DNA of 64,000 bases from Neptuniibacter sp. PT8_73. Lineage in GTDB: Bacteria > Pseudomonadota > Gammaproteobacteria > Pseudomonadales > Balneatricaceae. The notes under the pieces are model-generated. The model was not told the origin of the DNA. It saw only the letters and a program-made list of their open reading frames with translations, and did not search any database. The stretch covers positions 1,649,480-1,713,479 of the forward strand of contig NZ_CP180545.1 of the NCBI RefSeq assembly GCF_047778045.1. Reading direction: 5' to 3'. The position numbers were made by a program, and so were the translations under genes. Positions 9,850 through 52,810 of the stretch are shown here, one piece after another (within the stretch, counting starts at the first letter, position 1; each line of letters starts with the position of its first letter).

Positions 9850-9868
9850 GTTTTAGATGAAATCGAAA

Positions 9869-13671: not shown

Positions 13672-13784
13672 GGTGGCTCTGCTGGTCCTTCCGCAATGAT
13701 AAATCGTGAACCTGGTCAGGCCCGGAAGGGAGCAGCCACAGCGGTGGATTCATGTGCCGGAATGTGGCTGGTGGAGTCATCACC
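13672..13784 (+). ncRNA. ffs: signal recognition particle 4.5S RNA
   Basis: Near-identical to the E. coli 4.5S RNA domain IV core (ACCUGGUCAGGCCCGGAAGGGAGCAGCC). 5' GGUGGCUCUGCUGG pairs with 3' CUGGUGGAGUCAUCACC. No ORF in the region. Confidence 0.85.
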
Positions 13785-15450: not shown

Positions 15451-15515
15451 AGCGCTTTCTGATAATCTTAAAAAGTGAATCTTTTAGAATTAAAACTTCA
15501 ATAAAAGAGAACTAT

Positions 15516-16358: not shown

Positions 16359-16625
16359 AACAGTTATAGACTTTTGCGTTTGAATTAAAAACTTTGAGTA
16401 AGTATTTGGCTTTTAAACAATGAAATAACTTTAGAGTTATTGTTTTAATTGTACGTTATTTAATCAGTTTTCCCTCCCGAAATGTATAGATCGTAAGCAG
16501 CCTGAAAATAATCTTAATTTTTGATCGATTATTATTGAAATGGCTGCAAATGATAAATATTATCACCTGCTATTGATTATCCTTTGTATTTAATTCCTTA
16601 ATCCTAATGTAGTAAGTGCAAATAC

Positions 16626-18584
16626 ATGAATAAGCTAAACAGATTTAATTTACGCAGTAAGATCGGTTTGAGTTTCGGTTTTATCTTGTTATTGCTGGTG
16701 GCGGCATCGTTTACAGGTATTAAAGGCTTACATCACGCGGAAGATGGCTTTGTTCAATACCGTGAGTTGGCGCGGGATAGTAATCTTTCAGGGCGCTTAC
16801 AAGCGAATATGCTGAAAGTGCGCATGTCGGTAAAAAACTTTCTTATCAGTCATGACAATCAATCATTAGAGCAATACGAACAACGTATGGCGTTGATGAA
16901 TCAGTTTTTAGAGCAATCCAAGCAAGAAATTAATAATCCAGAGCGTAGCCGTTTAATTATGGAAACTGCAACGCTACTAGATGAGTATAAAACGACTTTT
17001 CAGAAGGTGGTTGGTTTAGTTAAAACTGAGGACGAGTTGTACTACAACACCTTGGCTCAGCAGGGCCCAGTTATGCGCGACAGTATTACTCAGTTAAGAA
17101 AGTTAGCTAATAACCGCGGTGAACCTGAATTGGCATTTTTAGCTTCTAATTTGCAGGAAGATCTGTTGCTAGCAAGGCTATATCTGGTTCGTTTTATGGA
17201 AAAGAACCATCAAGAAGATTTTCAGATTTCGATCAATAAATTGGATGGTGCTCTAACAAAACACCTAGAAAGCCTGAAAAAGGTGTTCCTGCTTGATAAT
17301 GAAATACAGCTGTTAGATCGTTTTGCTAAAGCACGAGATAAATATCTGGCTGCAACTCTAGAAATCCATAAGACAATTGATCAGCGCAATAACTTAGTAA
17401 TTGGGACTCTGGATGTGATCGGCCCCCAAGTTGCGAGTAATGTCGAAAAGGTAAAACTATCAGTTATTGCTGATCAAGATTCTCTAGGGCCAATGCTTCA
17501 GTCACACAATCATCAAGGCCTCGTGTCAGTGATCGTGATCTCTGTTATTGCGGTTATTCTGGGCGTTTTCTTTGCGCTTTGGATCACACGCATGATCACT
17601 CGTCCGATCCTAGAAGCGGTGAGCTATGCGGATACTTTGGCTGAAGGAGACCTTACCCAGGTGCTTGAAACAAACCGTAAAGATGAAGTGGGGAAGTTGC
17701 AGGGTTCTTTGGGGCATACAACTATTAGATTCCGTGAGATGATCACTGAGATCAACCAAGCTGGTTACAACATGAGTATGTCGGCGGAAGAGTTAGCCGC
17801 GCTGACAGAGCAAGCGCGTGCCGGGACAATGCAGCAGCAGGAAGAAACTGATCAGGTAGCATCTGCTGTAACTGAAATGGCGTATACGGCTCAGCATGTT
17901 GCGGATAACGCGTCTAGTGCAGCTTCTTCTGCGGACAGTGCTAACCATCAAGTGATGGAAGGCCGTAACAAAATGCAGATCGCGACAGAGGGGATGAATC
18001 GTCTCTCTTTAAGCTTGGATAAAACCTCTTCGGAAGTGCAACACCTGCAGCAGAAGACTCGTGATATCAATGCGATTCTTGATGTGATTCGTGAGATTGC
18101 AGAACAGACTAACCTTCTTGCCTTGAATGCAGCGATTGAGGCTGCTCGAGCAGGTGAGCAAGGTCGAGGTTTTGCTGTTGTTGCTGACGAGGTGCGCTCC
18201 CTTGCACAACGTACTCAACAGTCTACAGAGATGATTCACAATTTGATCGATGATCTACAAGCCCGTGCTAACTTGACGGTGAATGTGGTTAATCAAGGCA
18301 CGCAAGAAGCTAATCAGTGTATTGAACTGGTTGATCAGGCAGATTCTGCGTTGAATCAGATCAGTATGACAGTTGAGCAGATGAATGAAGTGAACGCTCA
18401 GATTGCTAGTTCTGCTGAACAGCAAAGTGTTGTTGCAGATGAAATTAGCCAGAGCTTGAGTAATGTACGTGTGATTGCTGAACAGAGCCGTGTAGCGGCT
18501 GATGAGACAGCTAATTCCAGTATCGCGCTAAGCGATGTTGCGGCACGTATGCAGGAAATGGTACAGCGCTTTAAAGTAAACTAA
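16626..18584 (+). CDS. methyl-accepting chemotaxis protein
   Basis: 652 aa. Transmembrane segment, roughly 280-aa periplasmic sensor, second transmembrane segment, HAMP, then an MCP signalling domain with a highly conserved hairpin tip ('[35 protein letters not shown]'). Confidence 0.85.
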
Positions 18585-18605
18585 GTTGTAGGCTTAATCG
18601 TGACC

Positions 18606-18631
18606 AAGGGGTGATTTATCACCCCTTTTTT
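18606..18631 (+). terminator. rho-independent terminator after the MCP gene
   Basis: aaggggtgat..atcacccctt stem followed by TTTTTT. Confidence 0.7.
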
Positions 18632-18675
18632 ATACCTAATCTAAAGTAACCTTTTAATATGTAGGTTTTTCGCTA

Positions 18676-19131
18676 TTGTTATCAAAGAATGGATTTTTGC
18701 CCATCTATAAGGGTATCAGGGAGTTAACAGTGGTCGATCAAGCAAACGTAACAAATGCGCCAGTATCTGAGTCTTTAAGTCAATTGATGTCTTTGACTGC
18801 TTTCAATGAGGCGACAGCAATTGCGTTAAAGCTAGATGCTAAATATCTAGAGAATGTTTTTAATCTTTACTGGGAAAGTGCGCAACGCGAGATTAACGAG
18901 ATTGGTCAGGCGTTTGATGACGACGATCAAACACAACTAAGAAAAATCGCGCATTCACTAAAAGGTTCGTCTCGCATGTTAGGGGGCGAAAGGTTGGGTG
19001 CTTTGGCCGGTTTTGTAGAAGAAAAAGCTAAGCAAAATGAGAGTGTTCCAGAGTCTGAGCTTTTGGATTGTTTGAACACTAGTTTAGCGGAGTTTAAAAG
19101 TGCAGTGCTGCAATCCAATTTACTCTCTTAA
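18676..19131 (+). CDS. Hpt (histidine phosphotransfer) domain protein
   Basis: Hpt signature 'HSLKGSS'. Start uncertain: the track's 18676 is a TTG, and a GTG at 18730 with GGGAG upstream is an alternative. Confidence 0.55.
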   Translation: MLSKNGFLPIYKGIRELTVVDQANVTNAPVSESLSQLMSLTAFNEATAIALKLDAKYLENVFNLYWESAQREINEIGQAFDDDDQTQLRKIAHSLKGSSRMLGGERLGALAGFVEEKAKQNESVPESELLDCLNTSLAEFKSAVLQSNLLS

Positions 19132-28307: not shown

Positions 28308-30056
28308 TTAAAGCTGGTTAGCTTTACGGTAGCGACCTTGGTAATCAAATATTCTCTCTTGTACACGCCAATAGTGCTTTTGCTCGCGTGCGATGACAAA
28401 GTCTGGCGCGACTAAAAGTGCTTCATAAGCGATCGCTTCTTCTATGTTTGAAAAGTTTTGCGGGGCTTGGCTATTCGCAACCCGTCGCCCAAAGATCTCA
28501 TTAAAGCGTTTTAGCTGAGCCGGCTTGGAAAAATCGAAGCTCTCCTTCAGCTCTTCACCTTCCTCACCATGATAAATAACCTGAATCTTGGACTGATTCC
28601 GGATCAACGATAATCCCGCACATCGGATCACCATGGCATCTTTCAGTTTCAGTGCATCTTTTAATTGATCGTCTGGGTCGATAATCGCTTTATTGCACTG
28701 ATGGCATTTGCGGGCAGCGATATCATTTTCAGCATTACAGTGAGGACATTCTTTAAATCGAAAGCGAAAATCACACTGTTCTGATGGGGTATCGCTATCG
28801 TCGCTTTCAAGCAGACCTTTACAGCGTCGACCATGATGTTCAATTACCTTGCCATCGCTGTCAGTTTTGCCCCAAAAGATATTGGCAAAGCCGCAGGAAG
28901 GGCAAAATACTTGTACCGGTTCGGAATCTGGGGAAGGGCGTTTTTCACCCACTTCTGGATGGTGCAAATTATAGTTGTTGCCTGCGTAGTCGATGACTAA
29001 GCAATCTTTCTTTCCAGGCGCGAGTCTAAGACCGCGCCCAACAATCTGCTGATACAGACTAACAGATTCGGTGGGCCTTAAAATTGCTATAAGATCGACA
29101 TGGGGTGCATCAAACCCTGTAGTAAGAACTGATACGTTAACCAGATACTTAATTTTCTTAAGCTTGAAGTCACTGATCAAGCGGTCTCTATCTTCGCTGG
29201 TGGAAGAACCAGTGATCAAAGCTGTTTGGTCCTCGGGAAGGTAAGTGCTGATCTCTTTGGCGTGATCGACTGTTGCTGCAAATATCATCACGCCTTGGCG
29301 ATCTTGAGCTCGTTCGATTACTTGTTCAATGATCGCCCTAGTGACGCGCTTGTATTTTGTGAGCAGGTTATTGATATCTTTTTCAGTATAAGTGCCAAAT
29401 GCAGTTTGATCTAAGGCTGAAAAGTCATATTGCGCGACCGCGGCATCTTCCATTTCTGGGGGCGTTAAGTAGTTACGGCTAATCATGTAACTGAGCGGGA
29501 GTTCGTAGATGCAGTTACGAAATGGTTTTTCCTGCTCGCTTCTAACAAAACCACGATAATGCTGCTGATAGATCCAGCCCATACTCATTCTATAAGGCGT
29601 TGCAGTTAACCCAAGTACTTTGAGGTTGGGATTTATCTCTTGGAGTTTGTCAATGATCCGGCCATATTGGCTATCTTCGTCGTCATTAATACGATGACAT
29701 TCATCGACGATCAGTAAGGAATATTCGTTATTAAAAAGATCAATATTCGCCGCGACAGATTGCACACTGGCGAACGTAACCTGTTTTTCGATCTCTTTGC
29801 GACTCAGGCCCGCTGCAAAGATGCCGCCTTCTAAACCATAGCTTTCATATTTAGCGTGATTTTGCTCAACTAACTCTTTGACATGAGCTAGCACCATAAT
29901 TTTTTTACGTGCTAAGCGAGCAAGCTCTGCTATGACAAGACTTTTTCCGGCACCCGTTGGTAGCACGATGACAGCAGGATCATCAGTTTTGCGAAAGTGC
30001 TGTAATGTCGCATCAACGGCTTCTTGCTGATAGGGACGTAGGGTAAACGCACTCAT
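28308..30056 (-). CDS. radD: SF2 DNA repair helicase RadD (YejH-like)
   Basis: Walker A 'LPTGAGKS', DEAH-like 'VDECH', helicase motifs, C-terminal Cys4 zinc ribbon ('CPSCG...CPHC...CHQC'). Confidence 0.7.
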
Positions 30057-30304
30057 ATAGGGTTCAGATCCAATAGAAACAGCTAAAACAGAGTGATTCT
30101 AACCTATGAAAGTTCGAAGTCCCATTCAATGGTGATTCTTGATGTTTCTAATGATTAGGCAATTAGTATTTGAGAATGAATACTATTTATTTAGTTAAGC
30201 GTATTGATCATTCATAAAAACAAACATACACTCGATTAAAAGCAGTTTATGACAAAGGAAAGCACAAGGTTTAGTGCGTTAGTCATAATAGATAGGACTC
30301 ATTT

Positions 30305-30922
30305 ATGGAATTTCTCTTAGGGTTTTTCTCATTCCCACTGGCCGTTACGGCAATCCCTTTTCTATTTTTATTTTCCCTTATGCTGATCTCAGTATTGACG
30401 GGTTTTGTTGATGATATCCCATTTCTTAGCACTGAAACTGATTTGGAGATTGAGGTTGATGCGGAAGTGCCTGGGGGTACTTTATTGCCTGTTGGAATCA
30501 CCAAGGTTCCACTGATTATTAGCCTAACCACTGTTAGTTTCGTCGCTACAATACTGGTTTATTACATCGATACTTTCATACTGAGTGATATGAGCGGCGC
30601 GGTTTTTTATGGTGCTGCTTCGGGTTCAATCTTGGCCAGCTTATTTGTCAGCCTCTATATCGCGGCTTTTCTACTAAAGCCCCTGCAGCCATTGTTTGAT
30701 CATGAAAAGAGCTTTGCTGCGATTAACTATGTTGGCATGAACGCTATAGTTCGCTCCAATTCAGTTAACCAGACATTTGGCGAAGCTGTGGTTACAAAGG
30801 GTAGCTTGGAAAACCAGCTGGATATTTATAGTGACAGTGACACCCCAATTTCTTATGGCGATGAAGTGCTCATCGTTTCATTAAATCCTGAAAATCAACG
30901 ATACCTCGTTATCAAAAAATAA
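30305..30922 (+). CDS. NfeD/YqiJ-like membrane protein (flotillin partner)
   Basis: 205 aa. N-terminal transmembrane helices, C-terminal NfeD OB-barrel ('VVTKGSLENQLDIYSD...EVLIVSLNPENQRYLVIKK'). Confidence 0.65.
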   Translation: MEFLLGFFSFPLAVTAIPFLFLFSLMLISVLTGFVDDIPFLSTETDLEIEVDAEVPGGTLLPVGITKVPLIISLTTVSFVATILVYYIDTFILSDMSGAVFYGAASGSILASLFVSLYIAAFLLKPLQPLFDHEKSFAAINYVGMNAIVRSNSVNQTFGEAVVTKGSLENQLDIYSDSDTPISYGDEVLIVSLNPENQRYLVIKK

Positions 30923-30940
30923 CTCTTTTTGGAGAACAGC

Positions 30941-33061
30941 ATGGACGCAGGAGCTTCTGTATTCTTTGTTTCGACCACGGGCGTTGTCGCGCTTGTCCTT
31001 ATCATGTTTTTAACCTCGCGCTACAAAAAAGTACGCCGTGAAGGTGAAGCAATGATTGTAAACGGTACACGAGGTACGCGTGCCTCTCTAACAGGAACGT
31101 TTGTATGGCCTGTAGTTAACCGCTATGAATATATGGATATTACCCGTAAAAATATCTCAGTGACTCGTAGCGGTAGTAGAGATCAGGAGGGTGAGGAATA
31201 CGAAGGTCTTCACTGCAAAGATAATATCCGAGCTGACCTCAAGGTTGATTTTTATATTGGTGTAAATCACGAAGAGCAGGACATTGTTCGTGTCGCTAAA
31301 CTATTTACGACGCAAGGTGCTTCCGATCCAATGGGTCTTCGAGATCACTTCCAGCCAAAATTCTCTGAAGCGTTGAAAACAGCGGTAAAACAATTTGAGT
31401 TTGAAGAACTGCTAACTAACCGTCGCGCTTTCCGTGATGCTGTGGTGGAGGTGATTGGCAGCGAAATGGATGGTTTTAAAATCTATGACGTTGTAATCGA
31501 TAAAGTGGATCAAACAGCTTTCGATGCCCATAACCCGCAAAATATTTTGGATGTAGAGGGTATTCGTAAGATAGCCTCAATCACTTCTACCAAAAATATC
31601 GAAACCAATGCGATCCGTCAGGATGAGCAAACCAATATCAAACAGAAAAACGTTGAAGCGGAAGCTAACCGTAAACAACTTGATAAGCAGCATGCTGAAA
31701 ACGAAGCCCGCGTACAGCGTGAAATCGAGATCATTGAATCACAGGAACAAGCTCTTACAGAAGAAAAGCGTCAAGAGTATGAGCGTCTTGTTGAGGTCGC
31801 TAAGCTAGAAACTGAAGAAGAAGTTGAGAAAAAACGCGAAACAGTTCAATTGGAAGTAGAACTCACAAAAGTAGCAAATGAACGTCAGCTTGCAATTCAG
31901 CAAGAAGAAGTGAATCGGGCACGTGAAACAGAACGGGTTCGTACCGAGAAAGAGATCTCCCAGCAAGAGATGGAGAAAGAAGCTGCCATCGAAGAATCTA
32001 AGAAGTCTGTAGTTGAAACACGTTCCCAGCGTGTAGAGATCGAACGTAAGATCGCTCGTGAAGAGGAAGAGACCAAGAACCTACGTGCTTTCGAAACAGT
32101 GGAACGTAGCAAGAAAGTCCAAGTAATTGAAGCGGAAGCAGAAGCTGAGGCCGAAGGTATTAAGGCTATTGCCCATGCTCGTGCAGAGAAAGAAGCTGAA
32201 GCGGAACTGGCTGAGAAAAGCCTGATTCGTAATGAGGCCGAACTGAAAATTAAGAACCGTGAAGCTGAGAACGATCTAAATGTTAAAACGCGTAACGCTG
32301 AAGCTGAACTGATTGCACAGACTAAAGCCGCTGAAGCCAAAGAGCGCATGGCGAAAGCAACGCGTGAAGAAATTCAGGTTGAAGGTTTGGCTGAAGTTGA
32401 AGTTGAGCGTCAACGAGCTGATGCGATTCGTGAAAAAGGTATTGCCGAAGCAGAAAGCTTACGTGCGATTGGTACTGCAGAAGCGGAAACTATGCAGGCT
32501 AAAGGTAGCGCGGATGCTGACGCTAAGCAGGCAATTGGTTTTGCTGAGGCTGAAGCACTACAAGCGAAAGGCTTGGCGGAAGCTAAAGCTCAGACTGCTC
32601 GTTTTGAAGCTGCTCAAGCACACGATGAGCAGACCCGTGAATACGATAAGTGGGTTGTTGAACTACAGAAAGATAAAGAGCTCGAACTGGCTCGTATCGA
32701 AGCACAGCGCCACATGTCTGTTGATAATGCTAAGGCATTGGCTTCTGCGCTTGCTGAAGCTGATATCAAACTATTCGGTGGCCAAGGTATGGAAGAACTA
32801 CGCCGTACAGTAATGGATTCTGCGCGAATCGATACGCGCTTTACCAACTCCGAAGTTCTTAACCCATTGGTACGTGAGTACGTTGAAAATGACCGCAGTT
32901 TGCCTGATGACGTCCGTGCGATTCTTGAAAAGTGCAATGTAAATACTGGCGATATGAGCAATATCGCGCTGGCTGGCTTGGCTAACAAGCTAACTAGCAA
33001 TTCCGATGTACTTTCATCACTTAAAGAATTGGTTACTGGTACTGATAAATCAGAATCTTAA
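30941..33061 (+). CDS. SPFH/band-7 flotillin-like protein (YqiK-like) with long Ala/Glu-rich coiled coil
   Basis: N-terminal transmembrane segment, SPFH domain, then about 350 aa of EA-rich heptads (AEAEAEAEGIKAIAHARAEKEAEAELAEK...). ATG 30941 with GGAG RBS. The track's 30929 is a TTG. Confidence 0.8.
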   Translation: MDAGASVFFVSTTGVVALVLIMFLTSRYKKVRREGEAMIVNGTRGTRASLTGTFVWPVVNRYEYMDITRKNISVTRSGSRDQEGEEYEGLHCKDNIRADLKVDFYIGVNHEEQDIVRVAKLFTTQGASDPMGLRDHFQPKFSEALKTAVKQFEFEELLTNRRAFRDAVVEVIGSEMDGFKIYDVVIDKVDQTAFDAHNPQNILDVEGIRKIASITSTKNIETNAIRQDEQTNIKQKNVEAEANRKQLDKQHAENEARVQREIEIIESQEQALTEEKRQEYERLVEVAKLETEEEVEKKRETVQLEVELTKVANERQLAIQQEEVNRARETERVRTEKEISQQEMEKEAAIEESKKSVVETRSQRVEIERKIAREEEETKNLRAFETVERSKKVQVIEAEAEAEAEGIKAIAHARAEKEAEAELAEKSLIRNEAELKIKNREAENDLNVKTRNAEAELIAQTKAAEAKERMAKATREEIQVEGLAEVEVERQRADAIREKGIAEAESLRAIGTAEAETMQAKGSADADAKQAIGFAEAEALQAKGLAEAKAQTARFEAAQAHDEQTREYDKWVVELQKDKELELARIEAQRHMSVDNAKALASALAEADIKLFGGQGMEELRRTVMDSARIDTRFTNSEVLNPLVREYVENDRSLPDDVRAILEKCNVNTGDMSNIALAGLANKLTSNSDVLSSLKELVTGTDKSES

Positions 33062-33087
33062 TCGCTTAGGAACTCCAAAGTAACTTT

Positions 33088-33120
33088 AGCCTCCTTATCA
33101 CCTGGGAGGCTTTGTTCTTT
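33088..33120 (+). terminator. hairpin plus T-tract between flotillin and the giant ATPase gene (possible attenuator or partial terminator)
   Basis: agcctcc-ttatcacctg-ggaggct followed by ttgttcttt. Confidence 0.4.
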
Positions 33121-33149
33121 GGACTAGAGGTCACTGTAGGGAAAGTTTG

Positions 33150-36100
33150 ATGGATCAGAATCAGGACGTTTTGAACCAGGCCGTTGAATCGGGCGGTGCT
33201 TATGAAATCTTAAAAGCGCGCTTAGCCAGCCAAGGGGCTGAACTAAAAGGGTTAGTTGATCAATTAAATAAGGCTCGTCAGGAGGCATTTGGTGCGTCCA
33301 GTACTGAGTTGGTTGGCAAGGTTAATGTTCATACCCAAAATAACTGTCTTCCTGTCGATATGGCACAGGTCAACGATCAGTTACTCTTTGGCTATCAAGT
33401 ATTTGTTGGGCTTAAAGCAGCGCCTGAAGTCAAAGATGTTCTAGGCCTATATCGTCTATCAGAAACTGATAATCAGTTTCGGATTGATAGTGAGCCTTTA
33501 GCAGATTCTTTTCTTGATGATCCTCGCTTTGTTCATTCTTTTAACGAACTTTTTCGTTACTACAGTGACGCTAAACTGGTTCAAATTAGCCGCAGGGATT
33601 TCTGGCTATGTGTCGTTTTCCAAATTGGTAGTCGCCCAGAAGATCGTAAGGTTTATCGTTGGCAGCTTAAAGATAGTGGTGCGATCGAATATATAGACGA
33701 TCAAGGCCATAAAGAGCTGGATGGAGTCGGCAATCAGCTTGATGTTGATTGGCGTGAAACCGGGCGTAAGAATCATATAACCGGTGATTACCCTCATGTA
33801 TCGATTAATGATCGTATCTTTGTTGAGTGTGTTGGCGGTGATCTGACTGTAAAGCTTGAGAACAATACTCAAGAAGGGCGAGGGATCTATTCTGAGCCTG
33901 TCGAAGATCCTCATCAAACCGTTGCTGATGCAGAGATAAGTTACGCAGAAGTATCTAGTTTTATTCTGCTACGTATCAGACCAAACCGTGAGAAAGATTA
34001 CCGATATTTTGTTTACGACAGCCTGACTGAAAAGGTGCAACGGGTCGACTCCCTAGGCCAATGCTGTAAGTTACTACCTGAGGATCACGGTCTGTTATTT
34101 GCCAATGGTTACGCTTTGGCGAATGGAGAATTAAAACTCTTCCAAGATGATTGGAGTGGGATGCAATTCTTCCATGATATTCACGCCCCTAATGGTGAAG
34201 ATGCGTTTTACATTTTCTTCGATCCACAACACGGCGCTTACCTACAATATCAATATAACCTGATAGAAAAGACGGTATCTCCACCTGTATATAGTCATGG
34301 TTACAGTTTATATCCTGACGGACGCATGCTGGTTTTCCGTGTCAGTGATAATGCTGAAGCCAGTAAAACCCACCCTATGCGTATTTGGCAGACGCCTTTC
34401 ATGAGTGCCGATCTTTATGAAGCATCGCGACAAGAGGGTGGTGAAGGTTTTTATCGCAATTTAGGGAATGCCGAGTTAGTGAAAGGTATTTCTGAATTGA
34501 ATTCGGTCATTCAAATGACCAAAACGACAGAAATTAGTCAAACGCTTTATGAAGCTTTGGTAACTCACTGTGATGCAGCAGTCGATCAATATCATTGGTT
34601 AACGGATACAGAAACTCAGGGTGTTGACCAAAAACTATCTGAATTAGCGACAACGGCTGAACAGATCATTGATGAGTTCGCTAAAGTCCGAACTCTGCAG
34701 AAACAAGCGAAACAACAAACCGAAGAGCAAGCTCAGAAGCAGCATGATCTGCTAGGTAGAATTAAGTTAGTTCCGTCAGATAGCACAACAGATCTAATTG
34801 AATTGTTAGACGAGACTAAATCGCAGCTTGGCCACGTAATTAGCCTGCGTGAAATGCGTTATGTTAACGCTAGCCAGCTCGATGAAATGGAAGCTGCGTT
34901 AGATGAAGCTCGAAGTGGCTTGAACGCTAAATTACTAGAGCTTTTACAACAAGAGAAAGCTTACCAACCTTATCTAAAGCGCATCGATGCATTGGATTTG
35001 GCGCTTCCAGAAACAGAGAAAACAGCTGCGCTAGACCATTTGGCTGAAGATGCCGGCAAGATCCGTAGAGATCTAAATCTGGTCAATCAAGAAGTTTCAG
35101 ATATTGAAACTGATGATCCTACTAGCACGACAAAAATCCTCGATCTAACAACTGAGGTGATGGCGCGGTTAAACGCTACCGAAGCGCGTTTACGTAATCG
35201 TCGTTCTGAATTAAGAGATGGCGAAGCTAAAGCTGAATTTGCATCACAGCTTAAGCTCCTTACTCAGGCGATGACATCTGCTCTCGGTCAAGTTGATACA
35301 CCGGAAGCCTGTGATGATCAGCTTGCGCGCTTAATGGGGATCGTAGATAAGCTTGAAAGTCGATTTGCTGAATTCGATCAGTACCTAGCTGAGATCTACA
35401 ACAGACGGGACGAAGTTCAAGCAGCCTTTGAAGCGCAGAAGCAGCAGCTTTTATCTGCTCGACAAAAGCGAGTTGAAAATATTAGCCAAGCAGCTCAAAT
35501 CACGCTGAAAAGTATCGAAAAGCGTGTAGGAAAATTCGCTGAGCTTGACGACCTGAATAGCTATTTTGCAGCAGATGCGATGGTGCAGAAGTATCGCCAA
35601 TTGTGTAAAAACGTTCAGGAGCTTGGAGATAGCGTCAAAGCTGATGAATTAAGTGGCCGTATCAAAGCGCTGCAGGACCAATCTCTACGTTCACTCCGAG
35701 ATAATCAAGATATCTTTGAGCAGGGCGGCGATATTTTACGACTTGGCCGACACAAATTTAGCGTCAATCAACAGCCCTTAGAGCTTACCTTAGTCGATCG
35801 AGATGATGGTCTTAATTTACACCTAACGGGGACTGATTTTTACCAATCGGTTGTTGATGATGAGTTTCTGCGTTTACGTAAATACGCCGCGATGGATGTT
35901 AGCTCGGAAAGTAATGAAGTCTACCGAGCGGAGTATCTGGCTTATCTTATTTTAACATCGGCAGAATCAAAGCAATCTGGCTTGTCACTTGATCTCTTAG
36001 TTAAAGCCGCAAGTGAAAATGAACTGCAGCCTTTAGTTGATAAGTTTGCAGCTCCTCGTTATCGAGAGGGCTATGTAAAAGGTGTACATGACAAAGATGC

Positions 36101-38063
36101 AGGGACATTACTCAAGGCTATTATGCCGGTGTACGCCGATGCTGGTTTATTAAGGTTTAGTCAGAAAATACGTACAACGGGTTTGCTGTTTATCGCAGGG
36201 CTAGATAACAGTGCAGCTGATGCACTTAAGAAACAATGCCGTTCAGCTTTGCTAATGCAAAAAGAGTTGGGTTCAGATAGTGCATTTGATGTGCTGTTAG
36301 ACAATTACCAAACTCAAGTTTGTGAATGTCCAATACTAGCGAAACAAGCGCTTGAATATTTGATGTATCAGTTTGGCTTAGATCAGCAGGTCTCTGTTAG
36401 CCGTGATGCAGCCGAACTTGCAGAAAATTACTTAGCATTTAGGCATGGATTAGATTGGCGTAAAAACCAAGAAAGTCTGGCAGAACAATATCAGGATCAC
36501 TTGCTTTGGGTTGAAGCCTACTGTGAACATCATAAACAAGGTATAGAGTTCGTCACAGAGGCCGCTTTAATTGCAGCCTTATCTGACAGTAGCATCCATC
36601 TAACCCCTGTCGATTTCTCTTTGAGTATCAAGGTAAACGGCTTGTTAGGTGAGCACCTTCGTGTTGATGAGGGCAAGTGGAGCGAGACTATCAATGATTG
36701 GTTAGATCGCTGCCGTCACCACATTGAAACGGTCGTACCTGCGTACGAAAAATACCTTTCTCAACGTCAAGAGATGTTAGAAAAGCAAAGAGAGACGATG
36801 CGCATACAAGAGTTTGTCGCTAGGCCGCTAACCTCTTTTGTGCGTAATAAGTTGATCAGTGAATCCTATCTAAAATTGATGGGCGATAACTTTGCTAAGC
36901 AGATGGGTACAACCGGCGATGATCGTCGAACTGACCAGATGGGGATGTTACTGCTTATATCTCCTCCGGGTTACGGTAAAACGACCTTGATCGAATATAT
37001 CGCAGGTAAGTTGGGCTTGGTATTTATGAAGATCAATTGCCCCTCTTTAGGCCATGATGTTGTATCGCTTGATCCAAATGATGCGCCAAACGCGACCGCT
37101 GCTAATGAAGTTAATAAAATTAACCTCGCACTAGAAATGGGTAACAACGTGATGCTGTATCTTGATGATATTCAGCATACCAATCCTGAATTTTTGCAGA
37201 AATTTATCTCCCTAAGTGACGGTACTCGCCGCATTGACGGTGTTTGGAATGGTGTCACTAAAACTTACGACATGCGTGGTCGAAAGTTCTCCATCGTTAT
37301 GGCGGGTAACCCTTATACAGAATCAGGGGATGTGTTCAAAATACCAGACATGCTAGCTAACCGAGCAGATATTTATAACCTCGGTGATATGCTCTCTGAT
37401 CAGCGTGATGCATTCGAGCTTTCATATATTGAAAACTCTTTAACCTCTAACAGAGTGTTGGCTCCGCTGGCAAATAGAAATCTACAAGACCTCTACAAAC
37501 TCGTAGATATGGCACGTGGGCAAAATATCCCGCTTTCTGATTTAGAGCATAGTTACTCTTCAGCAGAAGCCTCCGAAATTGTAGCTGTGCTAGAGAAGAT
37601 GATTAAGGTTCAGCAAGTTGTGCTCGCTGTAAACCAGCAATATATCGCTTCAGCTGCAACCGCTGAACAGTACCGTACAGAACCCCCTTTCAAGCTTCAG
37701 GGTAGTTACCGAAATATGAACAAGCTTGCTGAAAAGGTGGTGTCGGTCATGACCGATGATGAGCTGGAGACGCTTATCAATGATCACTACATTGGTGAGG
37801 CGCAAACCCTAACCCATGGCGCTGAAGAAAACCTGCTTAAATTGGCTGAACTGAGAGGCGCTTTAGATGACGAGTCTGAAGAGCGTTGGGAAACCATTAA
37901 GCAGCGCTTTACTCGATCCTTAGAGGCGGGTGAGGGAGAAGATGCCGGCGATCGAATGGTCAACCAGATGGTTGATGTGAATAGGAACATTCGCCTGATC
38001 GCTTGGGCAATGATGCGTGCAACTAAGGAAATTGAAGCCGCAGAGGAGCTGGAGGAAATATGA
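33150..38063 (+). CDS. giant (1637 aa) coiled-coil protein with C-terminal MoxR/AAA_5-type AAA+ ATPase domain
   Basis: Beta-rich N-terminal 450 aa, about 450 aa of coiled coil, a helical region, then an AAA+ domain: Walker A 'ISPPGYGKTT' (DNA 36969-36986), Walker B 'VMLYLDD', sensor-1 'MAGNP'. ATG 33150 with GGGAAAG RBS. Confidence 0.6.
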   Translation: MDQNQDVLNQAVESGGAYEILKARLASQGAELKGLVDQLNKARQEAFGASSTELVGKVNVHTQNNCLPVDMAQVNDQLLFGYQVFVGLKAAPEVKDVLGLYRLSETDNQFRIDSEPLADSFLDDPRFVHSFNELFRYYSDAKLVQISRRDFWLCVVFQIGSRPEDRKVYRWQLKDSGAIEYIDDQGHKELDGVGNQLDVDWRETGRKNHITGDYPHVSINDRIFVECVGGDLTVKLENNTQEGRGIYSEPVEDPHQTVADAEISYAEVSSFILLRIRPNREKDYRYFVYDSLTEKVQRVDSLGQCCKLLPEDHGLLFANGYALANGELKLFQDDWSGMQFFHDIHAPNGEDAFYIFFDPQHGAYLQYQYNLIEKTVSPPVYSHGYSLYPDGRMLVFRVSDNAEASKTHPMRIWQTPFMSADLYEASRQEGGEGFYRNLGNAELVKGISELNSVIQMTKTTEISQTLYEALVTHCDAAVDQYHWLTDTETQGVDQKLSELATTAEQIIDEFAKVRTLQKQAKQQTEEQAQKQHDLLGRIKLVPSDSTTDLIELLDETKSQLGHVISLREMRYVNASQLDEMEAALDEARSGLNAKLLELLQQEKAYQPYLKRIDALDLALPETEKTAALDHLAEDAGKIRRDLNLVNQEVSDIETDDPTSTTKILDLTTEVMARLNATEARLRNRRSELRDGEAKAEFASQLKLLTQAMTSALGQVDTPEACDDQLARLMGIVDKLESRFAEFDQYLAEIYNRRDEVQAAFEAQKQQLLSARQKRVENISQAAQITLKSIEKRVGKFAELDDLNSYFAADAMVQKYRQLCKNVQELGDSVKADELSGRIKALQDQSLRSLRDNQDIFEQGGDILRLGRHKFSVNQQPLELTLVDRDDGLNLHLTGTDFYQSVVDDEFLRLRKYAAMDVSSESNEVYRAEYLAYLILTSAESKQSGLSLDLLVKAASENELQPLVDKFAAPRYREGYVKGVHDKDAGTLLKAIMPVYADAGLLRFSQKIRTTGLLFIAGLDNSAADALKKQCRSALLMQKELGSDSAFDVLLDNYQTQVCECPILAKQALEYLMYQFGLDQQVSVSRDAAELAENYLAFRHGLDWRKNQESLAEQYQDHLLWVEAYCEHHKQGIEFVTEAALIAALSDSSIHLTPVDFSLSIKVNGLLGEHLRVDEGKWSETINDWLDRCRHHIETVVPAYEKYLSQRQEMLEKQRETMRIQEFVARPLTSFVRNKLISESYLKLMGDNFAKQMGTTGDDRRTDQMGMLLLISPPGYGKTTLIEYIAGKLGLVFMKINCPSLGHDVVSLDPNDAPNATAANEVNKINLALEMGNNVMLYLDDIQHTNPEFLQKFISLSDGTRRIDGVWNGVTKTYDMRGRKFSIVMAGNPYTESGDVFKIPDMLANRADIYNLGDMLSDQRDAFELSYIENSLTSNRVLAPLANRNLQDLYKLVDMARGQNIPLSDLEHSYSSAEASEIVAVLEKMIKVQQVVLAVNQQYIASAATAEQYRTEPPFKLQGSYRNMNKLAEKVVSVMTDDELETLINDHYIGEAQTLTHGAEENLLKLAELRGALDDESEERWETIKQRFTRSLEAGEGEDAGDRMVNQMVDVNRNIRLIAWAMMRATKEIEAAEELEEI

Positions 38064-38776
38064 TTACTCAAATGGATATTGAGAAAATGTTGGTCGAGAG
38101 CTTTGAGGATCAACGTCTCTCCTCAGACGAAAGAGTGGAGCTTCGAGAGTTGATTGAGCAACTCGCAGCTCAACCTGAACTGCAATCTTTCGCGCGTAAT
38201 AAAGCTTTTTCAATTGCCAAGAATTCTGCTGAAAATGGCTTGATTGAGATCGCTTCTCTGAATTGGTTGGACAAGGTTGTTAAGACATTAGACAACACGG
38301 GTAAATCAGCGCCTATCAGAACTCAGTCAGCTTTTTCGCCGGGAGAAGATTGTAGATCTCTGATTCAACAGGAGATAAAACGTAGTCAGAAATCTATAGA
38401 TATCTGCGTTTTTACAATCACCGATCAGCCGCTACGCGACGCTATTCTAGCCGCACATAATCGAGGAATTAAGGTTCGTATCCTCACAGATCAGGATAAA
38501 GCGAACGATTTAGGTAGCGATATCGACTATCTAATGCATAAAGGAGTTGATGTGCTTTTGGATACGAGCCCATGGCACATGCATCATAAATTTGCTCTGT
38601 TTGACGGGGTGAGATTATTGAATGGAAGTTTTAATTGGACACGCTCAGCAAGTGATCGTAATCAAGAGAACCTTACGCTGACGGATAATCAAGAAATCGT
38701 ATCGGCATTTGCCGCTGAATTTGAAGCATTATGGACTCGCCACAGCAGTGTGCGGGTGGAGAGGGAGCCAGCATGA
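38060..38776 (+). CDS. phospholipase D superfamily single-HKD protein (Nuc-like)
   Basis: HKD motif 'HMHHKFALFDG...LNGSFNWT' near the C-terminus. ATG overlaps the TGA of the ATPase gene (ATGA at 38060-38063). GGAGG RBS. Confidence 0.7.
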   Translation: MITQMDIEKMLVESFEDQRLSSDERVELRELIEQLAAQPELQSFARNKAFSIAKNSAENGLIEIASLNWLDKVVKTLDNTGKSAPIRTQSAFSPGEDCRSLIQQEIKRSQKSIDICVFTITDQPLRDAILAAHNRGIKVRILTDQDKANDLGSDIDYLMHKGVDVLLDTSPWHMHHKFALFDGVRLLNGSFNWTRSASDRNQENLTLTDNQEIVSAFAAEFEALWTRHSSVRVEREPA

Positions 38777-39846
38777 CACAGGAAATAAGCACTCAAATCG
38801 AGAAGTTTGAACCGAGTCAAATGACTGAAGAGCAGCAGCAACGTGCGGTTGCCATTTCGCAGGATTATGACCCGTTGGACTCTATGGCGACAATCACCTT
38901 TGGTAAAGAGGCGATGGAAAGCATCACTGCTTTTTCAGATCAGGTGTTGGAGCAAGTCCGTACTAAAGATACTGGGGAAGCGGGGGATATCCTAGAAGCG
39001 ATGGTGACTCAGATGAAGAGCTCGCGCTTTGAAGATATTAAACCTGATTCCTTCCTCTCGCGTTTGCCTCTTATCGGTGAGCTTTTCCAAACATTTGGTA
39101 AGTTTGTAAAAGGATTTGATTCGGTTAAAGGCCGTTTAGATGAATTAGAGCAAAAATTAAATGCCCAAGGTCATCGTCTAGAGAAAGATATTGTCCAGTT
39201 AGATGGTTTGTATGATGAAAACTTAAACTTGCTGCAACAATTAGATATCTACTTAGAAGCGGGTCAAATCACGCTTGATCGCCTGAATAACGAGCAGATT
39301 CCTGAGCTAAGTAAGTTGGCTGAGTCCAGTGGTGATCCAGTAGATAGTCAAAAATTACGAGATCTACAGCAAGCGACAGGTCGCCTAGAAAAACGCCTAC
39401 ATAATTTAAAACAAGCGCGTTTAGCTGCGCTGCAAACTGCACCTCAAATCCGTTTGTCTCAAGAGGGTAACAAAATGTTAATGGAAGATATCCAAGATAT
39501 CATCCATAACACTATCCCTCTATGGAAGCGCCAGTTCCTTATTGCGATCTCTAACTATGAGAAAGAAAAAGCGCTTAAGGTGACACGTACGGTTAAGGAT
39601 TACACTAACCAGCAGTACCTACAAAATGCTCAAAAGCTACAAAGCCTAGAAGAGCAGATAGCGGAAAACTACCAGCGTGGTATTTTGGATCTGGATACCT
39701 TAAAAGAGGTGAACCAAATCACTATCGATACGCTAAACAATACGCTTAAGCACTACGAAGAAGGTCGTCGTATGCGTCAAGAAGCTGAGAAGGCTATTAC
39801 TCAAGCTGAGGAAGAGCTAAAACAAGCTCTGATGCAGACAGTATAA
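38773..39846 (+). CDS. TelA/KlaA-like toxic-anion-resistance family protein
   Basis: 357 aa helical protein whose N-terminal region resembles TelA ('DPLDSMATITFGKEAMESI...'). ATG 38773 overlaps the PLD TGA (ATGA). RBS GAGGGAG. Confidence 0.55.
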   Translation: MTQEISTQIEKFEPSQMTEEQQQRAVAISQDYDPLDSMATITFGKEAMESITAFSDQVLEQVRTKDTGEAGDILEAMVTQMKSSRFEDIKPDSFLSRLPLIGELFQTFGKFVKGFDSVKGRLDELEQKLNAQGHRLEKDIVQLDGLYDENLNLLQQLDIYLEAGQITLDRLNNEQIPELSKLAESSGDPVDSQKLRDLQQATGRLEKRLHNLKQARLAALQTAPQIRLSQEGNKMLMEDIQDIIHNTIPLWKRQFLIAISNYEKEKALKVTRTVKDYTNQQYLQNAQKLQSLEEQIAENYQRGILDLDTLKEVNQITIDTLNNTLKHYEEGRRMRQEAEKAITQAEEELKQALMQTV

Positions 39847-39916
39847 AAAGATTAAACATCTTGTTATTTGATAAAGGTTAATGTCGTTCATTAGCCTTTT
39901 TTATTTTTAAGCGTAT

Positions 39917-39946
39917 AAAAAAACCGGCCTAAGTAGGCCGGTTTAA
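39917..39946. terminator. bidirectional rho-independent terminator
   Basis: aaaccggcct-aagt-aggccggttt flanked by A/T runs, between the convergent TelA-like and acidic-protein genes. Confidence 0.7.
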
Positions 39947-39972
39947 AGTATCGCAGCGATTAAGAAGGGGGG

Positions 39973-41157
39973 TTAATCGTCTGCGTCGTCCTGATCAAAC
40001 CGGGTCATAAGGTCACGCAAAAGACCGAAGTTATCATCCAGTTTGCTCTGGGATTCTTCATCAGCATCTTTGTAGCGGATATCTTGATGAATCAAGCTGT
40101 CCAATAGATCTACCCCGAATAATGAACTGTCTTCTAGGAACGCCATGGCTGGGTTAGCAACCAAGTTATCGAAGTTGTTCATCATCTGGCCTAAGTGACG
40201 GCCATTATTGCCTAATGGGTTGTCTAGTTGTTGAACTTGCTCATAAGCAGCTACCGCTGAGTAACTTGCTGATTGAGTCATAGTTACATTCAAGTTCATC
40301 AACTCGGATTTGTCCATTTCAAATTCAGCTGCTTGTTCAAAAGCGTCTTGAACATCACCGCTGAAGAAGTCTTCGGCAATAAGGTTGATATCCTGAATTA
40401 GGGTTGTCAGCGCGTCTAACTCGTCTTCGTTAAGATCGCCTTCAACGCTAAAGCTATAGCTACTGCTGGCGCTACGTTCAAGGCCGAAAGATACAGCGCT
40501 ACTGTTACCATCAGAGTAAGCGCCTAAAGAGGCTGTTTGACTTGCCTCGCTGTTGAAACGTATTGAAACTTTGTCCCCTTCCTGTGTCATGACATCAAGG
40601 GAGAAAGACTCAGCTTTTGAGTAACGTTCAGCAGCAGAGATAGAAGTCTGGCGTGTGGACGCTGTTTCGTTGGTAGGCGCAAGGCCGGCCAGCGCTTCGA
40701 ACGTCAGATCTTTGGTTTGCTCGATTGTCGCGGAGATATCAGGGGTTAGCATGTTGAGATCTTCTAGAATCTCAGTTGCTTCTTTAAAGCCTTTTTCTAC
40801 GCCTGAAACGGCCGCTTTATACATACGGTCTAGGTCGGCATCAGACGCACCGCGGGCACGGGCTTGTTCAAGACCTTGTGCTACAAAATCAGAGATACGT
40901 GATGCAACTTTTTCCGGAGAGTAGTCATTTGCGTCGAGACTTTTCATCTCTGACACGCTCATGCCCGGAATGTTTTCTGCTAGTTTGGCTACTAACTTAT
41001 CTGCCGCAGATGCAGAACGACCGTTGCTATCTTTACCATCAGCAAACCCGCCCGTAACCAGTGTTTCCTGGCGAACCTGAGAGTAGGCTGCTTGGCTGCT
41101 TAATAGAACTTGCACGGTGTTTTCCTCCACAGACAAAAAAGGATCAAATGATCCCAT
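39973..41157 (-). CDS. highly acidic cytoplasmic hypothetical protein
   Basis: 394 aa, Asp/Glu-rich with a C-terminal 'DQDDADD'. No transmembrane segment or signal peptide. No recognisable motif. Confidence 0.4.
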   Translation of the reverse strand: MGSFDPFLSVEENTVQVLLSSQAAYSQVRQETLVTGGFADGKDSNGRSASAADKLVAKLAENIPGMSVSEMKSLDANDYSPEKVASRISDFVAQGLEQARARGASDADLDRMYKAAVSGVEKGFKEATEILEDLNMLTPDISATIEQTKDLTFEALAGLAPTNETASTRQTSISAAERYSKAESFSLDVMTQEGDKVSIRFNSEASQTASLGAYSDGNSSAVSFGLERSASSSYSFSVEGDLNEDELDALTTLIQDINLIAEDFFSGDVQDAFEQAAEFEMDKSELMNLNVTMTQSASYSAVAAYEQVQQLDNPLGNNGRHLGQMMNNFDNLVANPAMAFLEDSSLFGVDLLDSLIHQDIRYKDADEESQSKLDDNFGLLRDLMTRFDQDDADD

Positions 41158-51196: not shown

Positions 51197-52810
51197 TTAA
51201 GGACTGTTAGTGCCTATTACTTCGAGTGATTCATCAACTAAGGCATACAACAGTAGCTCTCCACTATCATCTGTTTTGAACATGCCGTATTTTGCCGCTT
51301 CATATCTTTCCGCTGTACCTTCTTGGAAGAAAAAAGCATTGGTTGCAAATTGTACTCGGCTATTGCGAATACGGTATTGAAGAATAGCTTGGTTCGATGC
51401 GAGTTCTATATCCTTTTCTGAACGGGTTAAAAGCTGCAAAAAACTAGCCTTATGATTGTCATCTAACTTAACTAAAAGAAAGCCATCAGCAGGGACGTCC
51501 TTAAGTGAACGACTAAATGCTTTATTGGTGATTTGGAATCTAAGTCGCATGTAATCACCTTGCATCAAGGACCGAGGGTCTACAGGCGCAAGCTCTAATA
51601 AAACGGTTTTACCTTCAGCCAATAAGGTCTCTTTTTGGTAGATATTAATATTTACCGCTATTAGCAAGAGCAATGCAGTGAGTAATGCGCCCCATTTAGC
51701 TCGGTTCATTTGGGCAACATGGCTAAGGCCTATTTTCTTCTTTGGTAGATAGATCTTGCTCAGGAGAAGGTAACTGGCTAACGCAACCGTGCCTAAACCC
51801 ACTAAATAGATTGATTTAACCAGTAAGGTTTCCTGAAGGTTGTAGTAATACCAAGATACAAAACTAATTAATGCAACTAGACCCAAGCCGAGCAGGGCGC
51901 GTTGCTGTCTATGAAAGCCGACTAACAGTAACAAGAGTGCAGCAGGTAAACCGGCAATCGTAAATGAGGTTGCGGCCATGATAATAATTAGAGCTACATA
52001 GCCAGCAATGTTTTTACTGTCTTTTGTAACTTGTTGCTCTTTGAATATATAAGCTAGTAGAAATGCGAAAGTGGCTATTTGTGCAATCGAGCCTATCAGA
52101 GGGCCGTTAAGTTGCAGAAAGCCAACATCACTGATCTTGTAGAGAAATGAGAGTTCATTTTGTAACAGCGAATGACCACTAAACTGTAATAGCGAGATGG
52201 CCATACCGTAGCTGATAGGAATCAGAAACTTATGCCACTTTAGCCATTGCTGTTCTTTACACCAGATCAAGGTAAAAGCGAGGGCGGCTACAGCACTATC
52301 TAGCCCATGTATACCTTGGCGGTTTAAACCCCAGAATAGAGCGATCATGGCAAACCAACTCGAGATGACTCTATGTAGGAAGCTCGGCATTACAAGGGCT
52401 AGGACCGCTTGGTAGATCGCTAGCGCCAGAAAAACCGTAACTTCATTATCTCCCAGAAATTCAAATAAACCCCAGCCAAACATAAATTGGCCGCAAATAC
52501 TGATTGCTAAAGCTAATTGATTGTAGAAAGGGGACTCGCCACTGTGACGATAGATGGTATAGGCGCCAATGGAACATCCGAGTCCAGCGACCATCAGTAG
52601 AATATGGTTATCATAACGGAATAACCAACCGAATATACTGCCCACAAAGCCAAGCATAAACAAAGCTGCTAACCAGCCAGAGAAACCTTGCATCAGATGG
52701 ATAAACCAAGCTGATTGGCTGGGGTGCTCTTCTGGTTGATCCGCAGTGACTATCCCTTCGGTTTGTAGTTTCTGCCAAAGTGCTCGATCTGAATTAGTCA
52801 TCTTGAGCAC
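51197..52810 (-). CDS. membrane protein, DUF4401-like multi-transmembrane region fused to a GDYXXLXY domain
   Basis: 537 aa, about 10 transmembrane segments, then a soluble domain with the 'GDYMRLRF' motif of the GDYXXLXY family. Confidence 0.55.
   Translation of the reverse strand: MLKMTNSDRALWQKLQTEGIVTADQPEEHPSQSAWFIHLMQGFSGWLAALFMLGFVGSIFGWLFRYDNHILLMVAGLGCSIGAYTIYRHSGESPFYNQLALAISICGQFMFGWGLFEFLGDNEVTVFLALAIYQAVLALVMPSFLHRVISSWFAMIALFWGLNRQGIHGLDSAVAALAFTLIWCKEQQWLKWHKFLIPISYGMAISLLQFSGHSLLQNELSFLYKISDVGFLQLNGPLIGSIAQIATFAFLLAYIFKEQQVTKDSKNIAGYVALIIIMAATSFTIAGLPAALLLLLVGFHRQQRALLGLGLVALISFVSWYYYNLQETLLVKSIYLVGLGTVALASYLLLSKIYLPKKKIGLSHVAQMNRAKWGALLTALLLLIAVNINIYQKETLLAEGKTVLLELAPVDPRSLMQGDYMRLRFQITNKAFSRSLKDVPADGFLLVKLDDNHKASFLQLLTRSEKDIELASNQAILQYRIRNSRVQFATNAFFFQEGTAERYEAAKYGMFKTDDSGELLLYALVDESLEVIGTNSP

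Follow-up and report, generated by a model that had tools for sequence, protein, structure and literature searches.

A flotillin-linked giant AAA+ ATPase gene block with PLD and TelA genes in Neptuniibacter: a candidate membrane-stress module

Introduction

Bacterial flotillins, PspA-type ESCRT-III proteins and TelA proteins are all linked to envelope stress, but their mechanism and energy source are unclear. An operon type that bears on this question was predicted in silico by Ravi, Anantharaman, Aravind, Gennaro et al. (mSystems 2024, PMC11237479; bioRxiv 2020). In its PspA-linked form, a YqiJ/YuaF protein with three transmembrane (TM) segments lies beside a band-7/flotillin protein and a novel AAA+ ATPase, and a phospholipase D-type hydrolase (PLD, HKD) is present 'in some Proteobacteria'; abbreviated operons lacking PspA are described as 'more widely distributed'. 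The proposed role is in envelope stress, through ESCRT-like sub-membrane assembly and remodelling. Here we analyse a related block of five genes (g1 to g5) at 30305-39846 of a 64,000-nucleotide stretch of the Neptuniibacter sp. PT8_73 chromosome (NZ_CP180545.1, positions 1,649,480 to 1,713,479), referred to below as the window. The block encodes a YqiJ-like protein, a flotillin, a giant AAA+ ATPase, a PLD-superfamily enzyme and a TelA-family protein.

A sequence-only reading of this DNA had presented the block as an undescribed module. This cannot be maintained for the core, which, with PspA and PLD as optional members, is already contained in the prediction of Ravi et al. The accompanying statement that no experimentally characterised system has this composition still holds. 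The name TelA has no occurrence (0) in the text and supplement of PMC11237479.

Results

The five genes are co-directional on the plus strand, as had been claimed and as the list of open reading frames (ORFs) confirms. The genes and their nucleotide-level motifs are as follows (aa, amino acids).

g1, 30305-30922, plus strand: 205 aa, YqiJ/NfeD-like inner-membrane protein
g2, 30941-33061, plus strand: 706 aa, divergent flotillin, YqiK-like SPFH protein
g3, 33150-38063, plus strand: 1637 aa, giant soluble AAA+ ATPase with DUF3686
Walker A to Walker B of g3, 36960-37178, plus strand: SPPGYGKTT at residues 1271-1279 and LYLDDIQH at residues 1336-1343
g4, 38060-38776, plus strand: 238 aa, single-HKD PLD-superfamily enzyme of the PLD6 (MitoPLD/Zucchini)/Nuc clade
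HKD motif of g4, 38582-38605, plus strand, with GSFNWT at 38624-38641
g5, 38773-39846, plus strand: 357 aa, soluble TelA-family protein

ATGA overlaps join g3 to g4 (38060-38063) and g4 to g5 (38773-38776); both had been reported in the earlier reading and can be read directly in the sequence. A GGAGAA ribosome-binding site precedes the g2 start codon (ATG 30941), for which TTG 30929 is an alternative. The closest database proteins of the module come from Neptuniibacter strains and are 97-100% identical.

Relatives of g3 were collected by a pattern and tblastn scan, taking one genome per species, which gave at least 584 loci; all counts out of 80 given below refer to the best 80 of these. An HMMER scan with the 520-aa head domain of g3 returned 665 clusters at 50% identity. 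Complete members of the family are 1,590-2,036 aa long, and the DUF3686 head domain is always N-terminal. The best 80 loci are from Gammaproteobacteria, Betaproteobacteria, Zetaproteobacteria, Myxococcota, Actinomycetota, Planctomycetota, Eremiobacterota, Longimicrobium and a metagenome-assembled genome of Clostridia, while matches on plasmids and chromids add Deinococcus, Hymenobacter, Streptomyces and the Pseudomonas megaplasmid pQBR103.

In 76 of the 80 loci, the gene immediately upstream of the g3 homologue is a g2 homologue. At three of the other four the contig ends before this position, and only the Sorangium locus (L053) truly lacks the flotillin gene. The flotillin-ATPase linkage, kept in 76/77 informative loci, is obligate. 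A g1 homologue is found upstream of g2 in at least 59/80 loci, PLD in 15/80 and TelA in 12/80. It follows from these counts that the conserved unit is g1-g2-g3, and that PLD and TelA are accessory. The sequence-only reading had divided the block in the opposite way, into a known NfeD-flotillin pair and a new trio coupled by ATGA overlaps, and so cut through the nearly inseparable junction of flotillin and ATPase. Related loci occur in many phyla; the trio itself is found only in loci of the Vibrionaceae type.

Other genes recur around the core. A DUF2170(YjfI)-PspA/IM30 pair is located upstream of it in about 29/80 loci and a rhomboid protease gene is present in 8/80; a TFIIB-type zinc-ribbon protein is also recurrent. 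With the exception of this zinc-ribbon protein, all recurrent accessory partners are envelope-associated. No member of the PspA or DUF2170 clusters was found within 23150-48063 of the window. The flanking genes differ in nearly every locus, which suggests that the module moves as a unit; judged from these comparisons, the block appears to be a horizontally spread, chromosomally encoded membrane module.

Two loci with unusual arrangements were seen. On pQBR103 (L086, Pseudomonas fluorescens SBW25, record 85112-97641), the core is joined to a yjfJKLMC-type polyamine/PspA operon in one composite string, which reads PspA, rhomboid, DUF2491, DUF350, DUF1190, glutathionylspermidine synthase, YqiJ-like, SPFH, 'DNA repair ATPase'. 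The string brings together the two PspA operon classes described by Ravi et al., and does so in a tractable strain. In Veronia nyctiphanis (L070, 7846-14829), the match of the flotillin gene to g2 is limited to residues 1-358, that of the ATPase gene to g3 starts only at residue 437, and the two genes are separated by two unrelated ORFs; an insertion or rearrangement appears to have disrupted the core.

g5 is a TelA protein over its full length, as its TelA-like label had implied: Pfam TelA (PF05816) matches residues 28-354 of 357 with E = 2e-78, scoring 264 bits where the cutoff is 30, and the PHROG family 'tellurite resistance' matches with E = 9e-51. A protein of Neptuniibacter sp. PT8_73/SY11_33 is 100% identical to g5, and the length agrees with that of database orthologues. 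TelA genes are joined to the core in three gene orders. The order g3-PLD-TelA is found in the window and in Vibrionaceae, with TelA proteins 62-67% identical to g5. In Xanthomonadales the order is g3-coiled-coil gene-TelA(-PLD), with 27-31% identity to g5; here a protein of ~235 aa (cluster C28), predicted to be a coiled coil and lacking a Pfam match, is always encoded between the ATPase and TelA genes.

C28 genes, at about 15340-16050 in the Xanthomonadales loci L019, L026, L027, L033, L043, L045, L047 and L059

The third order, TelA-g1-g2-g3, occurs on a metagenomic contig of 33% GC (guanine plus cytosine) content (L087, logan:SRR28998481), where positions 9656-19058 encode a 109-aa ORF, TelA, g1-like and g2-like proteins and a DUF3686 ATPase. 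The TelA protein is 44% identical to g5, the g1 homologue 36% to g1 and the g2 homologue 46% to g2. TelA here occupies the place that PspA has in other genomes.

In a crude neighbour-joining tree the module TelA proteins form two TelA clades, with XpaC-linked TelA proteins falling between them; the Vibrionaceae-type module TelA is nearer to the XpaC-linked proteins than to the module TelA of Xanthomonadales. Taken with the three gene orders, the crude tree suggests that TelA has been recruited repeatedly, and hence that TelA is functionally linked to the flotillin-ATPase core. The nearest TelA proteins from outside the module (38% identity) belong to TelA/YaaN-XpaC pairs, which have neither a flotillin nor an ATPase gene nearby. 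The module in the window also differs from Ter tellurite-resistance clusters in that no TerB, TerC or TerD gene flanks it. We considered whether TelA might itself be PspA/ESCRT-III-like and rejected this at the sequence level (hhalign against the module-linked PspA profile, 0.35% probability). No solved structure matches TelA by sequence. No paper tying TelA to SPFH/flotillin operons was found, the Ter/TelA survey of Anantharaman, Iyer and Aravind (2012), which may mention the neighbourhood, lying outside the search. The linkage in three gene orders is a new handle on TelA function. The shoulder domain of the vault particle is SPFH-like. Because of this likeness, the TelA-flotillin linkage may bear on an older claim found in the reference list of PMC3762200.

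Neither g1 nor g2 has a Pfam match, even at E <= 5, and 37 orthologues of g1 likewise have none, NfeD (PF01957) included. The family profile of g1 matches E. coli YqiJ with 94% probability (hhalign, E = 1.2e-7), and the match includes the C-terminal part; for this and the YqiK comparison the MG1655 proteins served as references. The soluble domain of YuaF (2k14) is matched weakly (E = 0.25). g1 has three hydrophobic segments (residues 12-30, 70-88 and 109-127 on the Kyte-Doolittle scale) and a C-terminal soluble domain.

The family profile of g2 matches E. coli YqiK with 99.9% probability (hhalign, E = 1.5e-35), and a direct comparison of the two proteins includes the SPFH region (BLASTP, E = 8e-24, 26% identity). 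Human flotillin-1 matches g2 at E = 5e-4. Band_7 (PF01145) does not recognise g2 itself and is reached by only 5/42 of its orthologues, Flot by one. The clear homology to YqiK, together with the failure of most members to reach the Band_7 model, indicates that g2 represents a divergent flotillin subfamily. The labels YqiJ and SPFH flotillin given to the pair in the earlier reading are thus upheld by profile comparison with YqiJ and YqiK, g2 being a divergent member. An N-terminal TM segment (residues 7-25) is followed by the SPFH domain, a Glu/Ala-rich coiled coil of ~350 aa (E/A/K/R/Q fraction 0.56-0.70 over residues 251-600) and a conserved C-terminal domain. YqiK has 553 aa against the 706 aa of g2, which has an extra C-terminal region. 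A hydropathy scan places TM segments in g1 and g2 only; g3, g4 and g5 have none.

The 1637-aa product of g3 had been described as a coiled-coil protein with a C-terminal MoxR/AAA_5-type ATPase domain. Pfam supports the AAA+ domain (AAA, E = 8e-8; AAA_5, E = 2e-5; AAA+ core at residues 1267-1394) and adds an N-terminal β-domain that had been overlooked, DUF3686 (residues 31-482, E = 1e-163), as well as DUF7902 (residues 603-687, E = 2e-16). An N-terminal helix (residues 1-50) precedes the β-rich, propeller-like DUF3686 domain (53-414), a helical bundle (420-519), a long coiled coil (~520-860) and an all-helical middle domain (~880-1220); the AAA+ core is followed by a helical lid and a C-terminal region. 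An AlphaFold2 model of residues 1-520 (predicted local distance difference test, pLDDT, 87; predicted template modelling score, pTM, 0.83) has ~28 strands in 53-414. In a model of residues 861-1637 (pLDDT 77), the middle domain is confidently predicted as all-helical, and it has no counterpart in the PDB.

The best matches of the AAA+ module are to MoxR-type CbbQ and NorQ and to dynein modules, all of them weak. Walker A and Walker B are invariant across 12-20 homologues; the further motifs sensor-1 (MAGNP, 1384-1388), LANRAD (1402-1407) and QGSYRN (1517-1522) are likewise invariant in homologues. No solved relative of g3 was found by sequence, PDB profile matches being limited to ~40 residues round Walker A. 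The closest database protein, from Neptuniibacter, is 98% identical and bears the name 'DNA repair ATPase'. Neither domain content nor context supports this name: beyond the AAA+ P-loop, searches of Pfam, NCBIfam and PDB profiles found no SMC/RecN/Rad50-type ABC head and no SMC-hinge, DNA-binding or nuclease domain in g3. DUF3686 is absent from the paper literature as searched, and the name therefore appears to rest on an automatic label. The name is misleading, and the present analysis corrects it.

g4 is a single-HKD member of the PLD superfamily, as had been recognised from its sequence (Pfam PLDc_2, E = 1e-31). The motif is intact (H175-x-K177-x4-D182, with GSFNWT at 189-194). The closest solved relative is PLD6/MitoPLD (E = 3e-26), in an alignment of 138 residues without gaps; the nuclease Nuc matches with E = 6e-13. 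The HxKx4D...GSxN motif is shared with PLD6 (MitoPLD/Zucchini), Salmonella Nuc and Helicobacter NucT, but a helical extension of ~95 aa, in which no domain is recognisable, takes the N-terminal position at which PLD6 has its membrane anchor and Nuc its signal peptide. A TerB-like domain in this extension was considered and rejected, since Pfam searches with residues 1-95 gave noise only. Orthologues of g4 that include the extension (41-56% identity) lie directly downstream of the core in the 15 PLD-bearing loci, in the orders g3-PLD, g3-rhomboid-PLD, g3-rhomboid-ZnR-PLD (ZnR, the zinc-ribbon gene) and g3-PLD-TelA. Three of four further close homologues sampled also adjoin the core in such loci. 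By sequence and position, the module PLD proteins appear to be a dedicated subfamily.

A terminator scan and folding revealed hairpins within the block and at its 3' end.

g2-g3 hairpin, 33074-33123 with core stem 33088-33111, plus strand: candidate partial terminator or attenuator (terminator scan, folding)
Two 3' hairpins, 39873-39944, both strands: ends of the module and of the convergent gene 39973-41157 (terminator scan, sequence, folding)

The terminator-like hairpin between g2 and g3 had escaped the earlier reading. Its core stem is followed by the U-rich tail UUUGUUCUUUG, and it folds with -25 kcal/mol (z = -4.2; 0/200 shuffles fold as well). In most gammaproteobacterial loci with a g2-g3 spacer of 57-150 nucleotides (nt), a strong GC-rich hairpin comes right after the flotillin stop codon, often with a U-rich tail; examples are L001, L003, L004, L007, L008, L009, L016, L064 and L077. 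Its sequence is not conserved between loci. In Actinomycetota and Myxococcota the spacer is 0-36 nt and has no hairpin. We infer that the element is a partial terminator or stabilises the mRNA, such that the scaffold protein is kept in excess; as an intra-operon attenuator it may set the ratio of scaffold to ATPase. The ATGA overlaps had been taken to imply stoichiometric co-expression. The overlaps are real, but the hairpin means that a single five-gene transcript with fixed stoichiometry is not assured.

At the 3' end, a GC-rich hairpin (39921-39944) has a 10-bp stem and, to one side, an A-run; read on the minus strand it carries a U7 tail, from which it follows that it chiefly terminates the convergent gene 39973-41157. 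A second hairpin (39873-39899) has its U-rich tail on the plus strand. The two together fold with -35.7 kcal/mol (z = -6.1); a further 3' fold has z = -4.9. The bidirectional terminator proposed at 39917-39946 is thus a strong hairpin, as stated, but one that serves chiefly the minus strand, the plus strand having a hairpin of its own.

Upstream of g1, a sigma-70 scan found no promoter-like site in the spacer 30057-30304, whose inverted repeats are weak, and Rfam found no RNA family in 29900-40200. This spacer of 248 nt is shared with a divergent gene for a RadD-like helicase (28308-30056, minus strand, 582 aa, ResIII/Helicase_C with a C-terminal zinc ribbon). The pairing of helicase and g1 is not kept at other loci and is therefore probably coincidental.

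The window is ordinary chromosome. Besides the RadD-like helicase it encodes a glyoxalase, an M15 peptidase, a DUF5610 protein, a Kef-type antiporter, a DUF2058 protein, an APH kinase, a GGDEF-CHASE protein, a NiFe hydrogenase, topoisomerase III, SufS-SufE and ProRS. An alpha-2-macroglobulin gene (1619 aa, bMG domains) followed by one for a PBP1C-type transglycosylase/transpeptidase (779 aa) at 1998-9246 on the plus strand corresponds to the known YfhM-PbpC periplasmic defence pair. At 51197-53795 on the minus strand, the gene for a DUF4401+GDYXXLXY membrane protein (537 aa) overlaps a 333-aa ORF at its start, and the two form an uncharacterised conserved pair.

PADLOC-DB 2.0 has no match for g1, g2, g3 or g5. 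g4 gives weak PLD-level matches to DrmC, MkoB/C and DpdK (best E = 7e-10), and the partner genes of those systems are absent. Among 129 proteins flanking 30 low-GC related loci no defence family is recurrent; the flanks are heterogeneous and mostly housekeeping, with scattered PADLOC matches only. No relative of g3 was found in the phage genomes searched, and no paper was found that links a flotillin and an AAA+ protein to phage defence.

Discussion

With moderate confidence, we favour reading the block as an ATP-driven flotillin/TelA membrane-stress (maintenance) machine. Conservation of the core, repeated recruitment of envelope genes, the TelA linkage, the localisation of the proteins, the kinship of g4 with PLD6 and the recurring hairpin all point in this direction, and Ravi et al. 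arrived at the same envelope-stress, ESCRT-like reading. The sequence-only reading had noted the membrane theme and offered a remodelling or repair machine as one of two interpretations, and on both counts the comparative genomics agree with it. In such a machine, the flotillin and the YqiJ-like protein would form an SPFH cage or microdomain that is anchored in the inner membrane at its cytoplasmic face, and the ATPase may dock on this scaffold through its propeller and coiled-coil parts. Using ATP, it would assemble the scaffold, remodel it or take it apart, together with the membrane-coating proteins that partner it; these would be TelA in the present locus and PspA in many other genomes. 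The PLD would act at the same site, most likely on a phospholipid such as cardiolipin, as reported for PLD6, or alternatively on nucleic acid. Owing to the hairpin that follows the flotillin gene, there would be more scaffold protein than ATPase, PLD and TelA. The machine as a whole would protect or repair the membrane when the envelope is under stress.

A bolder version is conceivable, and we think it rather unlikely. TelA would be a membrane-coating client or partner of a flotillin-anchored AAA+ remodeller, able to fill the operon place of PspA; the DUF3686 ATPase would be the functional equivalent of Vps4 in bacteria, serving assemblies of flotillin, PspA and TelA; and the PLD6-like enzyme would turn cardiolipin into phosphatidic acid where the membrane is damaged, as a parallel to mitochondrial PLD6.

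Several observations weigh against a membrane-stress machine. PLD6, Zucchini and Nuc are also nucleases, and a lipid substrate of g4 is not established. In Walker B (LYLDDIQH, 37155-37178) an Asp replaces the catalytic Glu in all aligned homologues, so ATP hydrolysis may be slow or regulatory. The patchy distribution across phyla, megaplasmids included, would also fit an accessory defence function. No PspA gene adjoins the module in the window, and the family as a whole is known from comparative and sequence evidence alone.

A membrane-anchored anti-phage system acting by abortive infection, in which flotillin/YqiJ or TelA senses that the membrane is perturbed as phage enter or lyse the cell, the ATPase transduces the signal and the PLD, as a Nuc/Zucchini-type nuclease, degrades nucleic acid of phage or host, would draw on some of the same observations. 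g4 has the nucleases Nuc and NucT among its relatives and shows weak similarity to the defence PLDs DrmC, MkoB/C and DpdK, a large ATPase plus a nuclease is a common defence layout, and Ter/TelA and Psp systems have historically been tied to phage and colicin resistance (PMC7824862). A few flanking genes at other loci are also defence-like, among them one for a Csx1/CARF protein and a type I restriction-modification system near locus L092. Against this, PADLOC has no model for four of the five proteins and recognises g4 only at the generic PLD level; the flanks carry no recurrent defence family, the neighbourhood in the window is ordinary chromosome, and no phage genome yielded a g3 relative. 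The PLD gene is missing from ~80% of the loci and so cannot be the essential effector of the core, while PspA, rhomboid and polyamine genes, which recur beside the core, have to do with envelope stress and do not encode nucleic-acid sensors. Defence, the other interpretation offered by the earlier reading, thus finds no positive support in defence islands or phages, and we consider it unlikely, yet a real rival because of the nuclease relatives of the PLD and the patchy distribution.

The hairpin between g2 and g3, the confinement of ATGA coupling to g3, g4 and g5, and the existence of E. coli yqiJK without any ATPase could be taken to mean that two independent units happen to be neighbours, a yqiJK-type pair with its own terminator and a separate ATPase-PLD-TelA operon, which is roughly how the sequence-only reading saw the locus. 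This is very unlikely in view of the near-constant adjacency of g2 and g3, their spacing of 0-36 nt in Actinomycetota and Myxococcota, the distinctness of a flotillin subfamily that mostly fails Band_7, and the restriction of the trio to Vibrionaceae-type loci. We find it harder still to credit that g3 is a DNA-repair or chromosome-organising ATPase with the PLD as its nuclease. The names 'DNA repair ATPase', 'Smc' and 'ATPase involved in DNA repair' on homologues and on Pfam DUF3686 suggest this, as do the long coiled coil combined with an ATPase and the weak RuvB-type matches over Walker A. Yet the RuvB matches span only the ~40 residues round the P-loop, domains of the kinds expected for DNA binding, an SMC hinge or a nuclease were not detected, the names appear automatic, and g3 is always tied to membrane proteins and not to repair genes.

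A dedicated AAA+ ATPase of 1,600-2,000 residues is positioned beside a flotillin in hundreds of species, with PspA, TelA, a rhomboid protease or a PLD6-like hydrolase added by lineage. The block is a concrete and genetically tractable candidate for an ATP-driven membrane-maintenance machine, with relatives in culturable Vibrio, Pseudomonas, Stenotrophomonas, Proteus and Myxococcus.

Comparison with known systems

The SPFH cage of HflK/C encloses an AAA+ machine, FtsH, which is a membrane-anchored AAA protease of the classical clade. The combination of an SPFH membrane scaffold with an AAA+ ATPase is common to that complex and to the present module, and we use HflK/C-FtsH as a working analogy for a cage that would position or regulate an ATPase. 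Unlike FtsH, g3 is soluble, lacks a protease domain and, by weak matches, appears closest to MoxR-type AAA+ proteins. With ESCRT-III/Vps4 and PspA-PspF the module may share the logic of an ATPase that remodels a membrane-coating polymer; in contrast to Vps4, g3 has no MIT domain and falls outside the Vps4 clade, and this locus has no PspA gene. According to a review of 2025 (PMC7619361), a Vps4-like partner for PspA 'appears absent in bacteria'.

E. coli YqiJ-YqiK and B. subtilis YuaF-FloT resemble g1-g2 in that a small multi-TM gene comes first and the flotillin gene second, and g1 and g2 are homologous to YqiJ and YqiK. Those operons stop after the flotillin gene, whereas here the gene for the giant ATPase comes next.

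The operon of Ravi et al. remains the closest relative. g1 is a 3-TM YqiJ/YuaF-type protein beside a flotillin, g2 combines a TM segment, SPFH homology, a coiled coil and a flotillin region, and the HKD phospholipase D is an optional member in both cases. The CesT/Tir(YjfI, DUF2170)-PspA pair of the full form is absent from the window, which carries the abbreviated form without PspA. To the type predicted in that purely computational work the window adds TelA, and neither the g2-g3 hairpin nor the three TelA arrangements are described there. The core operon type is therefore already predicted and experimentally untouched, and it is the TelA-bearing layout that looks new.

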